A DNA stretch of 4,491 nucleotides, taken from the IMG/VR virus record IMGVR_UViG_2526164628_000009; one strand, written 5' to 3'. Both the position numbers and the translations under genes were made by a program. The stretch comes from a virus (Duplodnaviria > Heunggongvirae > Uroviricota > Caudoviricetes). The notes under the pieces were generated by a model, which saw only the letters and a program-made list of their open reading frames with translations, had not been told where the DNA came from and made no database searches. Below are positions 1,906 through 4,491 of the stretch, in pieces (positions within the stretch are counted from its first letter, which is position 1; every line of letters begins with the position of its first letter).

Positions 1906-3015
1906 ATGACCGATACCACCATGCAATTGCTCAGTCAGGGCACAGACCCCGTGAAAATGCCGGATTTTGATATTCTCGCGGAGGGTAAAACGCTGTCAGG
2001 CGTGGCAGAGCGCCTGATGAGCCTGTCACTGACCGACAACCGGGGATTTGACGCGGACCAGCTCACCATCACGCTGGATGATGCGGATGGTCAGTTGCAG
2101 CTACCGCCACGGGGCGCGCGCCTGACGGTTCTCATTGGCTGGAAAGGAGAACCGCTGACAGAAAAAGGCACTTACATTGTTGATGAAATCGCTCACGAAG
2201 GACCGCCGGACAGGCTGACTGTTTCAGCCAGAAGCGCAGATTTTCGGGATGAATTTAACGTTAAACGTGAGGTGTCCTGGCATGATGTGACCGTTGAGCG
2301 TGTGGTATCCGCCATCGCTCATCGGTATGGTCTGAAACCGCAAATCAGCGAAATGCTGATGGATATCGAAATCGACCACGCCGACCAGACCGAAGAAAGC
2401 GACATGTCCTTCCTTACGCGCATGGCGGAAATGCTGGGCGCAATCACCACGGTAAAAAGCGGTAATCTGTTATTCATTATGCCAGGCGGTGGCGTGAACG
2501 CACAGGGCCAGCCGTTGCCATCGTTCGCCATCACGCGCAGCAGTGGCGATCGCCATCAGTTCCGCATTGCTGACCGCGAAGCGTATACGGGGGTACGCGC
2601 TTACTGGCTTGATCTTAATTACGGGAAAAAGAAAAAAGTCAGCGTGAAACACCGCAAACCGCCAAAACCCAAAAAGGAGAAAAGCAGCAGCCGCGAAGGT
2701 GATTATATGGAAGGCGCGGAAGGCAATGTGTTTGTGTTACGCAAGACTTATCAGAACGAGCAGGCAGCAAGACGCGCAGCGGCGGCAAAGTGGCAGCAGC
2801 TACAACGCGGAGCCGCATCATTCTCCATCACGCTGGCATGTGGTCGTGCAGAACTCTACCCCGAAATGCATGGCACGGTAACAGGATTTAAAAGCGAGAT
2901 TGATAATCAGGACTGGATTATTGCAAAAGCCGAGCACACCATCGATAACAGCGGCTTTACCACGCAGCTTGAGCTTGAGGCAAAAATCCCGGAATGGATA
3001 GCAGAAACAGAGTGA
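1906..3015 (+). CDS. D: P2-like phage tail protein D (gpD, late control gene D family)
   Basis: The ORF track gives 1774..3015, but the upstream extension has no RBS. The ATG at 1906 is preceded by GGGAGGG at about -7 to -13. The 369-aa product has the gpD-like C-terminal half (AYTGVRAYWLD, a Lys-rich linker, NVFVLRKTYQNEQAARRAAAAKWQQLQRGAASFSITLA) and lies directly upstream of ogr as in P2. Confidence 0.88.
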   Translation: MTDTTMQLLSQGTDPVKMPDFDILAEGKTLSGVAERLMSLSLTDNRGFDADQLTITLDDADGQLQLPPRGARLTVLIGWKGEPLTEKGTYIVDEIAHEGPPDRLTVSARSADFRDEFNVKREVSWHDVTVERVVSAIAHRYGLKPQISEMLMDIEIDHADQTEESDMSFLTRMAEMLGAITTVKSGNLLFIMPGGGVNAQGQPLPSFAITRSSGDRHQFRIADREAYTGVRAYWLDLNYGKKKKVSVKHRKPPKPKKEKSSSREGDYMEGAEGNVFVLRKTYQNEQAARRAAAAKWQQLQRGAASFSITLACGRAELYPEMHGTVTGFKSEIDNQDWIIAKAEHTIDNSGFTTQLELEAKIPEWIAETE

Positions 3016-3057: not shown

Positions 3058-3318
3058 ATGTTCCGTTGTCCGCTTTGTGGCGCATCTGCCCGTATCCGCA
3101 CCAGTCGTCCGGAAAATGATTCAAACACCGTGCGGCAAAAGTATTACCAGTGTAACAACCTGGAATGCGGCGTATGCTTCTCAACACTGGAAGCTTTCCA
3201 TAAATTCACATCAAAACACACCTCCGGCGTTCACTCTTCAGAAGGTATCCCGTGGCATGAGCTGCCAGCTTCACACAGGGGAAACAATCAGATGAGTTTG
3301 CCTTTACCTCAGAATTAA
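3058..3318 (+). CDS. ogr: Ogr/Delta-family zinc-finger late transcription activator
   Basis: 86-aa ORF starting MFRCPLCG...RTSR...YYQCNNLECGVCF, matching the CPxC...C-x4-C zinc-finger layout and N-terminal MFHCPLC...ARTSR signature of P2 Ogr and 186 B as I remember them. Strong RBS (AAGGGAGG) upstream. It is about 14 residues longer than the 72-aa P2 Ogr I recall. Confidence 0.85.
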   Translation: MFRCPLCGASARIRTSRPENDSNTVRQKYYQCNNLECGVCFSTLEAFHKFTSKHTSGVHSSEGIPWHELPASHRGNNQMSLPLPQN

Positions 3319-3509
3319 CAGGCAGAATTGCCGGAGTAACAAAAAAGCGATAGATTACGCGCGGGTGCCTTTCGGCTGATGGTCGGAGGGAATACCCGAA
3401 GGCCAGATGTGGAAAGGCCCCGGAAAACATTTCTGTTTAACCGAGGCCCTAACATATCTACCTTAAGCAAGTGATAGGTTAGCGCCTCTCCAACAAAGGA
3501 GCAAGCGCT

Positions 3510-3650
3510 ATGTCGCAAAAATCGCTTACGGCCATCACGTTCTGCGTGACGGTAATCCTCATCATCTGGATGCTACACGGTTCGCTGTGTGAAATACGGA
3601 TGAGCTTCTGGGGAGCGGAGTTTGCGGCGTTCTTACAGTGTAAGCAGTAA
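3510..3650 (+). CDS. Hok/Gef-family type I toxin (small membrane-active host-killing peptide)
   Basis: Absent from the ORF track, probably below its length cutoff. ATG at 3510 is preceded by AAGGAG (3496..3501). Hand translation gives 46 aa, MSQKSLTAITFCVTVILIIWMLHGSLCEIRMSFWGAEFAAFLQCKQ, with a single N-terminal transmembrane helix followed by the SLCEIR motif and the E-x-AAF motif characteristic of Hok/Gef/RelF peptides. TAA stop at 3648..3650. Confidence 0.8.
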   Translation: MSQKSLTAITFCVTVILIIWMLHGSLCEIRMSFWGAEFAAFLQCKQ

Positions 3651-3659
3651 GGAAACCGC

Positions 3660-3681
3660 GACGGGGGAGCAATCCCCCGTC
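3660..3681 (+). other. Stable stem-loop in the hok-like 3' UTR (9-bp GC-rich stem, GCAA tetraloop)
   Basis: GACGGGGGA (3660..3668), loop GCAA, then TCCCCCGTC (3673..3681), a perfect inverted repeat. It is not followed by a U-tract, so it is probably an mRNA stability or folding element rather than a terminator. Confidence 0.6.
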
Positions 3682-3738
3682 AATCGGTTGCTAAGGTTGG
3701 CTGAAGTGGCACCCTATCTCACAGACATGAACAACAAA

Positions 3739-3770
3739 CCCGCAGCGTAAGAACTGCGGGTTTTCTTTTT
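3739..3770. terminator. Rho-independent terminator, plausibly bidirectional, between the convergent hok-like gene and the minus-strand cargo gene
   Basis: CCCGCAG (3739..3745), 8-nt loop, CTGCGGG (3754..3760), then TTTTCTTTTT (3761..3770) on the plus strand. On the minus strand the same stem is followed by TTTGTTGTT, so it could terminate transcripts from both directions. Confidence 0.75.
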
Positions 3771-3838
3771 GGAACTATCACTAGCTAGTGTACCGTTAAC
3801 GGCACATAATGCTCGCACAACAAACCTGTTAAAAGAGA

Positions 3839-4120
3839 TTACTCAGCATTCTCCTGCTTCCATTGCCGGATCATTTCATCGGTAACATCACCCTCATAAC
3901 ATACCACGTCATACCCTCCATTACGGCTATATGCACTGCGTCCACCACATCTACTACCATTCCTTGCATGATTATAAGGACACGCACAATTGCCTGGATA
4001 AGATTCAATGGATTCTTTAATTATTTCTTTTTTGATCTGAGCATCAGACTTTCCTGTTGCTGCATATCCGCTAAAAGATACTAAACAAAGGCAGATTGCC
4101 ATTAATAAACCACATCGCAT
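3839..4120 (-). CDS. Small exported cysteine-rich protein of unknown function (predicted signal peptide, about 70-aa mature part)
   Basis: The 131-aa ORF-track entry starts at a TTG with no RBS. The more plausible start is the ATG at 4120..4118, giving 93 aa: MRCGLLMAICLCLVSFSGYA|ATGKSD..., with a basic n-region, hydrophobic core and an AxA-like cleavage site. The mature part has four Cys (GNCACPY...SRCGG...VVCY). The gene is clearly more AT-rich than the flanking phage genes. Start choice and function are uncertain. Confidence 0.5.
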   Translation of the reverse strand: MRCGLLMAICLCLVSFSGYAATGKSDAQIKKEIIKESIESYPGNCACPYNHARNGSRCGGRSAYSRNGGYDVVCYEGDVTDEMIRQWKQENAE

Positions 4121-4264
4121 ACCGATACACTCTATTACTAACCAATCATAGCCCACATCATAAAATCGAGATGAGGAGTACAATACCTTTAACAAGAAGG
4201 TGTCATAACGATAATATGTCGTGCAATTCATCAAAAAAAAGATCTATATCAAAGAGATAGAACT

Positions 4265-4491
4265 TGGATTTGCCCCTATATTTCCAGACACCTGTTATCA
4301 CTTAACCCATTACTGGCCTGCTGCCGCAGATATTCCCGTGGCGAGCGATAACCCAGTGCACTATGCGGATGCCATTCGTTATAATGCTCGAACGCCTCTG
4401 CAAGGTTCTTTGCTGCCGTTAACCCGTCTGGTTTAGGCATGATACTGATGTAGTCACGCTTTATCGTTTTCACGAAGCTCTCTGCTATGCC
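4265..4491 (-). mobile_element. IS2 (IS3 family) insertion sequence, terminal 227 bp, truncated by the window edge
   Basis: From 4265 the plus strand reads TGGATTTGCCCCTATATTTCCAGACACCTGTTATCACTTAACCC, the reverse complement of the IS2 terminus (...GGGTTAAGTGATAACAG.TGTCTGGAAATATAGGGGCAAATCCA) as I remember it. The adjacent minus-strand frame encodes the IS2 OrfB C-terminus. Confidence 0.85.
4276..4491 (-). CDS. insD: IS2 transposase OrfB (InsD) C-terminal fragment; the 5' part lies beyond the window
   Basis: The minus-strand frame is open to the window edge: [71 protein letters not shown]. The [15 protein letters not shown] block is the typical IS3-family integrase-core C-terminus. The ORF-track M at 4473 is a GTG inside this frame, not a true start. 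Confidence 0.8.

Follow-up and report, generated by a model that had tools for sequence, protein, structure and literature searches.

The hok/sok (parB) locus of plasmid R1 is the paradigm of antisense control exerted through a leader open reading frame (ORF), mok, and saturation mutagenesis has confirmed that translation of mok is mandatory there (PMC9841398). R1 hok/sok and its plasmid relatives combine a Hok peptide carrying the motif SLCEIR with a long structured leader and a tac/fbi fold-back (PMC9841398, PMC4147584); the 3' end lies over the Sok target, the Sok RNA of about 60 nt has a free 5' tail, and the Shine-Dalgarno (SD) sequence, AAGGAG, is held in structure. Here, we describe a hok locus that, in part by prediction, resembles them in these respects but has no mok. 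It lies in a stretch of 4,491 nt (hereafter the window) from IMG/VR record IMGVR_UViG_2526164628_000009, which is the right end of a P2-like Escherichia coli prophage. Where the start codon of mok would align, the window has ATC, and every frame is closed before the SD. Furthermore, the Hok of R1 has 52 amino acids (aa) and that of the window 46, with distant similarity between them, and R1 hok/sok is plasmid-borne whereas the subfamily of the window is prophage-borne.

Chromosomal hokA resembles the window in leader layout and in the -10 box of Sok (TAACCT), but its intact copy in E. coli O157 has a mok in frame with hok (GAGG-N8-ATG), which the window lacks. The hokW-sokW locus of the Stx2 prophage Sp5 is a precedent for prophage-borne hok/sok cargo and for a Hok that acts at induction (PMC8621323). 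The product name 'MokW-like host killing' stems from the hokW family. HokW differs from the Hok of the window in being a HokC/Gef-like peptide of 51 aa (MKQQKAM...) with a canonical mok, and this peptide and mok-bearing locus, together with the primers used to study it, rule out that the two loci are the same. With a third system, tisB/istR-1, the likeness is one of mechanism, and Darfeuille and colleagues are said to have described ribosome standby control for it in 2007. In this system the antisense RNA binds far 5' of a structured toxin ribosome-binding site (RBS) and processing of the mRNA activates translation (PMC4147584). It has no sequence or family kinship with the window locus, IstR-1 is divergent and encoded in trans, and standby for the hok of the window is hypothetical.

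The hok ORF extends on the plus strand from the ATG at 3510 to the TAA at 3648-3650 and encodes, in 46 codons, the peptide MSQKSLTAITFCVTVILIIWMLHGSLCEIRMSFWGAEFAAFLQCKQ, in which an N-terminal hydrophobic helix is followed by SLCEIR and then by E-F-AAF. The SD sequence (3496-3501) is separated from the ATG by 8 nt. A first-pass annotation of the window had called a Hok gene from these traits (46 codons, an RBS, SLCEIR and E-x-AAF), and all of them hold. The Pfam search that it had proposed gave a match to HOK_GEF (PF01848) at 30.1 bits against a gathering cutoff of 22 (E = 3.7e-7; residues 7-44, profile positions 5-42 of 42), and the peptide matches PHROG 251, 'MokW-like host killing', at 82.8 bits; for a Hok peptide from a mok-less locus this product name is misleading. 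Family matches and conservation rule out a chance ORF. The top NCBIfam model is HokA (NF007290), with 35.8 bits where the equivalog cutoff is 89, and the nearest named protein is HokA of K-12, with 43% peptide identity and the common pattern WM..SLCE...AAFL.CK. Because of this identity and of a score below the equivalog cutoff, the Hok of the window is, judged by its sequence, a separate Hok subfamily and not HokA. Residues L26, C27 and E28 line up with HokA and HokC; L26 and E28 are invariant in the Hok alignment, and HokB has Y at the C position. They match the conserved positions L30/C31/E32 reported in a recent preprint (10.1101/2025.08.07.668861), which also found 42 of 45 diverse Hok homologues to be toxic; the cluster of the window may or may not be among these.

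A GAGG is followed, about 7-10 nt on, by the mok ATG in the intact O157 copy of hokA, in hokB and hokC, and in a gef/hokW-like phage locus; for hokA, hokB and gef, the ATC at 3456-3458 of the window is what aligns with this ATG. At the same place, neither the Stx-phage copy nor the Salmonella diarizonae relative has a start codon. Taking as mok a start codon followed by a frame open as far as the hok SD, we found that no leader ORF starting with ATG, GTG or TTG between -150 and -12 of hok extends to this SD. The upstream stops listed in the first-pass annotation (3464-3466 and 3472-3477) are there, as is an additional in-frame TAG that it had missed (Table 1), and the sole frame open over the hok start (from 3467) is, as it had stated, free of ATG, GTG and TTG. 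The lack of a start codon in an open stretch of 14 codons has, by our own estimate, a probability of about 50% by chance and is not statistically unusual; it is meaningful only because the mok ATG of the homologues aligns to ATC 3456-3458. A 31-aa ORF (3379-3474) was considered as a substitute for mok and rejected: it ends 22 nt before the SD, lacks an SD of its own, starts inside the hairpin of the tac partner, and has only 6 codons in the Stx-phage copy.

The lack of mok prevails in this subfamily. We retrieved 79 full loci from IMG/VR with an exact 26-mer taken from hok's coding sequence (CDS); 49 of them, copies identical to the window among them, lack an ATG, GTG or TTG ORF reaching the hok SD. 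The other 30 comprise 13 loci with a TTG at -46 in the sole open frame, 15 with upstream ATGs inside hairpins, and 2 with a replaced leader. Distant relatives in S. enterica subsp. diarizonae and Citrobacter braakii are likewise without a canonical mok. Hence, the loss of mok is real, is the majority state of the subfamily, and does not stem from a sequencing error in the window, an explanation that the first-pass annotation had named as one that could undo its claim. The most variable part of the cassette is 3451-3468 (64.5% pairwise identity and 1-nt indels, as compared with 92% in the CDS), which fits a role in Sok recognition rather than a coding region. We dropped these indels as strong proof of non-coding, since classical mok frames differ too: mok is in frame with hok in mokC and in plasmid pMTY1886, and out of frame in mokB. 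It is also out of frame in R1. Residues Q15 G16 E17 E18 are given for R1 mok (PMC9841398). Evidently, the mok reading frame is unconserved even among close plasmid relatives. The R1-type locus of pMTY1886_IncFII (345-559) has its mok ATG in frame with hok, which results in a 71-aa fusion frame, and RefSeq annotates there merely a truncated Hok CDS of 34 codons (458-559). In the most distant relative, from C. braakii ATCC 51113 (63% aa identity), a leader ORF of 15 codons (about 1309-1358 of the locus) starts with TTG and ends in a TGA that overlaps the hok ATG (UGAUG). Neither classical mok nor the window has such a layout, which is one of termination and reinitiation. One argument of the first-pass annotation has to be given up, that a strong SD speaks for mok-independent translation, because AAGGAG is likewise the SD of hokB, hokC and R1-type hok, which depend on mok.

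Among the mok-less copies, the Hok peptide evolves under purifying selection. The ORF is intact in 78 of the 79 viral loci and frameshifted in one, and its variability at the three codon positions is 0.071, 0.038 and 0.123. The ratio of nonsynonymous to synonymous polymorphism (pN/pS) is 0.23 overall and 0.22 in the mok-less loci, which have 26 synonymous and 14 nonsynonymous distinct variants, with synonymous sites making up only 21% of the total (binomial P = 3e-9, a value that ignores transition/transversion bias and relatedness). The putative promoters, the tac and fbi elements, and the Sok elements are conserved along with the mok-less state across P2-like, lambdoid, and S. diarizonae lineages. 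A peptide-alignment search of genome contigs returned only 7 loci. Three of these are identical or nearly identical E. coli-type cassettes in contigs assigned to a Planococcaceae metagenome-assembled genome (4.2 kb), Vagococcus sp. (226 kb), and Xanthomonas pisi (0.9 kb), where they are most likely enterobacterial contamination.

The RNA scaffold of hok/sok systems can be recognised around this gene. The leader aligns clearly with those of hokA, hokB, hokC and R1, and the Rfam model RF01794 ('sok', a model of the hok leader strand) has a plus-strand match at 3363-3520 over its full length (model positions 1-157) with 47.9 bits and E = 8.7e-9. The putative hok promoter aligns with the region 5' of GGGTGC in K-12 hokB and hokC and in the Stx-phage copy. 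The RNA from 3363 to 3768 folds with -178.1 kcal/mol (z = -8.6), and in the prediction the full-length hok RNA is closed by pairing of its 5' tac element with the 3' fbi element, with the 3' untranslated region (UTR) covering the Sok target. The long-range tac/fbi closure of the R1 paradigm is thus present in the computed minimum free energy (MFE) structure. Over 61 distinct relatives, 93.7% of the cells of this helix are paired; the tac element has 99.6% pairwise identity, and variation in the helix is one-sided (G-C to G-U) or leads to unpaired cells, without compensatory changes. The helix between the Sok target and the 3' UTR (3460-3475 with 3683-3697) shows two neighbouring GC to AU compensatory pairs in 15 relatives. 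The hairpin that sequesters the SD is found in full-length and truncated folds, with 93.7% of its cells paired in the relatives, and another main helix of the MFE structure pairs hok codons 2-6 with codons 35-40. For the whole fold, standard pairs occupy 92.9% of the cells, against about 42% with slid partners, and three helices show compensatory changes; given that the 61 relatives are closely related and that one of them supplied the structure, this pairing supports the fold without proving it.

Processing of the 3' end would change this structure. When the RNA is 3'-truncated (folds of 3363-3684 and of 3363-3530), 3363-3377 pairs instead with 3381-3397 in an alternative 5' hairpin, which resembles the tac stem of the processed R1 hok mRNA (PMC9841398). 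The stem-loop just past the hok stop is equivalent in position to the final stem-loop of the truncated R1 mRNA (PMC9841398) and, by this analogy, is likely the hairpin that protects the end of the processed, active mRNA. Transcription of hok probably stops at the terminator at 3736-3763; the terminator-like hairpin is kept in P2-like copies and absent from lambdoid ones.

On the opposite strand, we infer an antisense RNA like Sok, the putative promoter of which is conserved. Both sokB and sokC of K-12 have annotated ends that map by alignment to 3468 (5') and 3407 (3'), and the predicted RNA has a single-stranded 5' tail, a long hairpin, and a short U-tract (UUUCC). Folding 67 nt of the minus strand (3405-3471) gives a free 5' tail of 12 nt and a long hairpin (-26 kcal/mol, z = -4.8), the apical stem of which shows compensatory changes in the relatives. 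In the putative Sok promoter, which has an invariant -10 box, AGGTTAGCGCC is unchanged over 62 aligned relatives, and the -35 box overlaps the hok SD. The columns of its -10 box correspond to the region just 5' of GCCTCTTAC in hokA, hokB, R1-type hok and gef, and the -10 of sokW has been mutated experimentally at the corresponding region (primer YO-421, PMC8621323). The first-pass annotation had left two options, a decayed locus or a different mode of control. A simple remnant does not agree with the full hok/sok RNA apparatus predicted here, and purifying selection favours a different mode of control.

How could such a locus be translated without mok? For the hok translation initiation region (TIR, -14 to +4), we calculated the opening cost over the ensemble in the full-length RNA, with the 3' fold-back removed, and with the Sok target masked. 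For 61 unique relatives, the cost is 12.1 kcal/mol in the full-length form, 7.3 in the truncated form, and 12.6 with the Sok target masked, with the same direction in 60 of the 61; truncation also lowers the cost of opening 3460-3475 from 16.9 to 7.4 kcal/mol. Hence, the hok TIR of the window is predicted to open upon 3' truncation, whereas mok-bearing controls remain closed in the three forms: R1-type (17.5, 16.9 and 16.5), hokB (15.5, 13.9 and 15.5), and hokA (20.5 in each). The hokC of K-12 could not be used as a full-length control because IS186 lies 20 nt past its stop. With three of four controls differing, the contrast in predicted opening energy between mok-less and mok-bearing loci is suggestive.

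We consider it on balance probable, if by no means assured, that the cassette is a functional type I toxin-antitoxin (TA) cargo, in which the RBS of hok is controlled directly by Sok and by 3' processing and not via mok. The full-length hok mRNA would be stable and inert, until slow 3' trimming of 3683-3714 frees 3460-3475 and makes the hok SD and AUG cheaper to open. As long as the prophage is present, unstable Sok would pair with 3407-3468, keep the hok TIR closed or close it again, and mark the duplex for RNase III. Upon loss of Sok, which could result from loss of the prophage, from induction or from the shut-off of transcription by an infecting phage, Hok would be made from its own SD, perhaps aided by ribosome standby on the freed 3460-3475 without any leader ORF, and would then harm the inner membrane. 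The payoff may be prophage retention, phage exclusion or help in lysis. A broader proposal, which we make more tentatively, is that a widespread mok-free Hok subfamily of P2-like and lambdoid prophages is controlled at the level of translation by a Sok that acts directly from 30-100 nt upstream of the SD. Such direct control may concern the opening of the RBS in the processed mRNA or a competition with standby ribosomes on 3460-3475.

A number of points weigh against this reading. First, selecting loci by an exact 26-mer biases the sample towards close, conserved copies, and the 61 distinct relatives are close kin rather than independent observations. Second, the RF01794 score falls below the gathering score of 59, which is why no Sok RNA is annotated here, and the putative promoters of hok and Sok each have 8 of 12 consensus positions, under the threshold of a promoter scan that did not report them. 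Third, the 3' processing site at about 3684 was assumed by analogy, the SD hairpin is still in the MFE structure after truncation, and the fourth mok-bearing control, the gef/hokW-like locus, behaves partly like the family of the window (13.2, 8.5 and 10.4 kcal/mol for full-length, truncated and masked forms). Fourth, mutations of the mok start or stops before the hok SD abolish the production of Hok in R1 (PMC9841398), because of which the window locus should, by the R1 paradigm, be untranslatable.

This last point is also the starting point of the alternative that fares best, a silent or domesticated descendant of hok/sok whose RNAs are made, whose toxin never is, and which persists by hitch-hiking on successful prophages. 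It takes the R1 requirement for mok translation up to the hok SD at face value (PMC9841398), and it would account for a mok ATG turned into ATC with stops in all frames after it and for an SD hairpin kept in every predicted form; besides, inactivated chromosomal hok loci are common, and those of K-12 hokA and hokC are flanked or disrupted by insertion sequence (IS) elements. What it does not explain is selection: a peptide that is never made should not show the pN/pS of the mok-less copies specifically, nor stay intact in all but one of the viral loci, and a toxin that is never made needs no conserved antitoxin promoter, yet the mok-less state has been kept over diverged lineages together with promoters, tac/fbi and Sok. 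We therefore regard a silent locus as unlikely, although it deserves to be taken seriously.

A further alternative concerns the role of the cassette and is compatible with direct control of the hok RBS: Hok might be produced mainly by late read-through from D-ogr in lytic growth and speed up lysis, as hokW does in Sp5. A terminator scan of the plus strand at 3318-3360 found none in the interval from the ogr stop (3318) to the putative hok promoter (3328), and in Sp5 hokW-sokW raises phage release about two-fold, HokW being seen only on induction (PMC8621323). But the locus studied there is a different one, mok-bearing and coding for 51 aa, and in lambdoid phages the same cassette is placed after lom, in another transcriptional context, so that we see lysis as an improbable main role. 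Finally, a cryptic leader ORF, with a non-canonical or upstream start or a stop adjoining the hok start, might still couple translation, as the TTG at -46 (after ATT) in 13 of the 79 relatives, the upstream ATGs (-130/-103) with an open frame in 15 others, the TTG...TGA ORF of C. braakii and the flexible mok frame of classical loci would allow, but this is very improbable in the window, where ORFs from ATC 3456, ATA 3454 and ATG 3379 or 3407 end by 3482, at least 14 nt before the SD, where AGG and AAG are the sole near-cognate codons in the open frame, and where the ORF from 3379 has the defects given above, while 49 of the 79 loci lack any candidate.

Table 1. Features of the window, in order of position, with the evidence on which each is placed.
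Feature	Position	Strand	Evidence or details
Tail tube	52-564	minus	ORF list/family match
Tail sheath	564-1748	minus	ORF list/family match
gpD	1906-3015	plus	intact, 369 codons
ogr, late-gene activator, upstream neighbour of hok	3058-3318	plus	Pfam Ogr_Delta, 52.4 bits
Putative hok promoter, left edge of mobile cassette	-35 TTGCCG 3328-3333; -10 TAGATT 3351-3356	plus	sequence inspection; 17-nt spacer
hok mRNA body, predicted 5' end to end of fold-back element	3363-3714	plus	Rfam match, fold, limits of homology
tac-like 5' element	3363-3377	plus	MFE, 15-bp helix with 3699-3714
Sok-like antisense RNA, about 62 nt (predicted)	3468 to 3407	minus	ends transferred from annotated K-12 sokB and sokC by alignment
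Lost mok start and closing stops	3456-3482	plus	ATC 3456-3458, TAA 3464-3466, TGA 3472-3474, TAG 3475-3477, TAG 3480-3482
Predicted target of the Sok 5' tail, equivalent of the mok TIR	3460-3475	plus	MFE, 14-bp helix with 3' UTR arm 3683-3697
Putative Sok promoter	-35 TTGCTC 3504-3499; -10 TAACCT 3481-3476	minus	conservation, alignment columns; 17-nt spacer
Predicted SD-sequestering hairpin	3480-3510	plus	MFE, 11 bp, 3480-3491 with 3498-3510; anti-SD CUCUCC at about 3486-3491
hok ORF	3510-3650	plus	46 codons
GC-rich 3' stem-loop just past the hok stop	3660-3681	plus	9 bp, 100% of cells paired, two compensatory pairs
3' fold-back region (predicted), right edge of mobile cassette	3683-3714	plus	3683-3697 pairs with Sok target; 3699-3714 fbi-like, GGCACCC core, pairs with tac
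Bidirectional intrinsic terminator-like hairpin with T-runs	3736-3770	both	terminator scan
Small secreted-looking ORF	3839-4120 (longer TTG-started form to 4234)	minus	PHROG 27544, 193.7 bits
End of an IS2 copy	from about 4262; ORF 4276-4473	minus (ORF)	Pfam rve_3, 52.9 bits

As non-essential cargo, the cassette occupies the ogr-attP interval of an E. coli prophage of the P88 type (Xuanwuvirus, P2-like). The hok ATG lies 192 nt past the ogr stop, and 471 bp (3320-3790) are 100% identical in many complete E. coli genomes, where they adjoin the leuZ-cysT-glyW tRNA cluster. RefSeq annotates these identical copies as "Hok/Gef family protein" (WP_000078920.1), and hok is annotated in P88-type phages as well, so that the gene is not "unlisted", as the first-pass annotation had it. 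Phage P88 (genus Xuanwuvirus) carries the same cassette at 99.1% identity, and its circular map reads gpD - ogr - hok - gp53 - record end/start - int - C - cox, from which we infer that attP of P88 is at the record end/start and that hok lies in the interval between ogr and attP. This order agrees with the placement proposed in the first-pass annotation, at the site where P2 has attP/int after ogr. Its suggestion of a prophage cargo is likewise supported by P88 and by 75 related viral contigs, in which hok follows ogr in 49 cases and lom of lambdoid phages in 18. The cassette has a putative promoter of its own and a terminator-like hairpin, lies between conserved phage genes, and is found in unrelated phage contexts, as expected for cargo genes (morons), and 'moron' is also its PHROG category. 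Because the similarity between P2-like and lambdoid copies spans only the hok promoter to the fbi end, ceasing right after GGCACCC, the mobile unit would extend from about 3328 to 3714 (about 390 bp). A related copy is found in 1,545 of 5,426 complete E. coli genomes, with up to 7 copies of the Hok subfamily per genome, and the variable stretch of the Sok target may prevent cross-talk among them. Plasmids seldom carry the subfamily (34 of 72,556 plasmid records).

Other copies of hok differ in their surroundings. In Stx2a and lambdoid phages, a mok-less copy of the subfamily with 83.6% identity (for instance 1670-1810 of one such locus) adjoins lom; many records leave it unannotated, and it is separate from the mok-bearing hokW-sokW of the Stx2 prophage Sp5. 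In a P2-like contig (IMG/VR 2713896902_000002, 12168-12305), a second, AT-rich Hok-like ORF (MSSNNIFILIICIIITLSIWILYGSLCELRALMWGDEFTDFLQCK) stands between ogr, which it follows directly, and the standard cassette, and around it we found no recognisable hok-type leader, tac/fbi or Sok region.

The sheath and tube genes are oriented leftward and gpD-ogr rightward, diverging from an intergenic region of 157 bp (1749-1905), and P88 has this divergent arrangement as well. In P2, the order is FI-FII-E-T-U-D-ogr. In E. coli 55989 and AR_0013, ogr bears the annotation 'ogr/Delta-like zinc finger family protein'. The P88 record (NC_026014) contains the ogr sequence (3739-3999 of the P88 locus analysed) without a CDS. 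The gpD of E. coli is represented in RefSeq by an 801-nt 'VgrG/Pvc8 family' CDS and a pseudo fragment on the opposite strand, whereas the gpD of the window is intact. Downstream of hok, the Cys-rich product of the minus-strand ORF at 3839-4120 has a signal-peptide-like N-terminus (MRCGLLMAICLCLVSFSGYAA...) and is a 'hypothetical protein' in E. coli genomes; it matches P88 gp53 in position. With its place between hok and the end of the prophage it is a second cargo gene, and just 12 of 66 related viral contigs have it downstream of hok. The IS2 end (IS3 family, 4262-4491) follows closely upon the last prophage ORF, an exact insertion point for IS2 that none of the complete E. coli genomes of our collection shares, and in the best full-length genome matches, IS2 is absent or lies nearby at 95-99% identity.

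The gene itself is known, being annotated in RefSeq and classified in PHROG, and a four-fold enrichment of Hok in prophages has been reported, together with its presence in 9.3% of Escherichia phages, in a study that left Mok unanalysed as hard to predict (preprint 10.1101/2025.08.07.668861). T1TAdb records leader ORFs only if they were already described or annotated. In the open-access literature we found no description of a mok-less hok subfamily or of hok in P88 or P2-like phages, which suggests that the mok-less architecture is of modest novelty. In practice, annotation pipelines overlook the Sok RNA here owing to the sub-threshold Rfam score, and a P88 lysogen or E. coli 55989 offers an easy natural system for mok-less hok/sok. 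Such a system would be mildly surprising to a specialist of type I TA systems and would not found a new category. If our reading is true, coupling to mok is not universally required in hok/sok systems, and a mok-less subfamily maintained by selection would show the same RNA scaffold put to use with a different last step, the direct control of the RBS.

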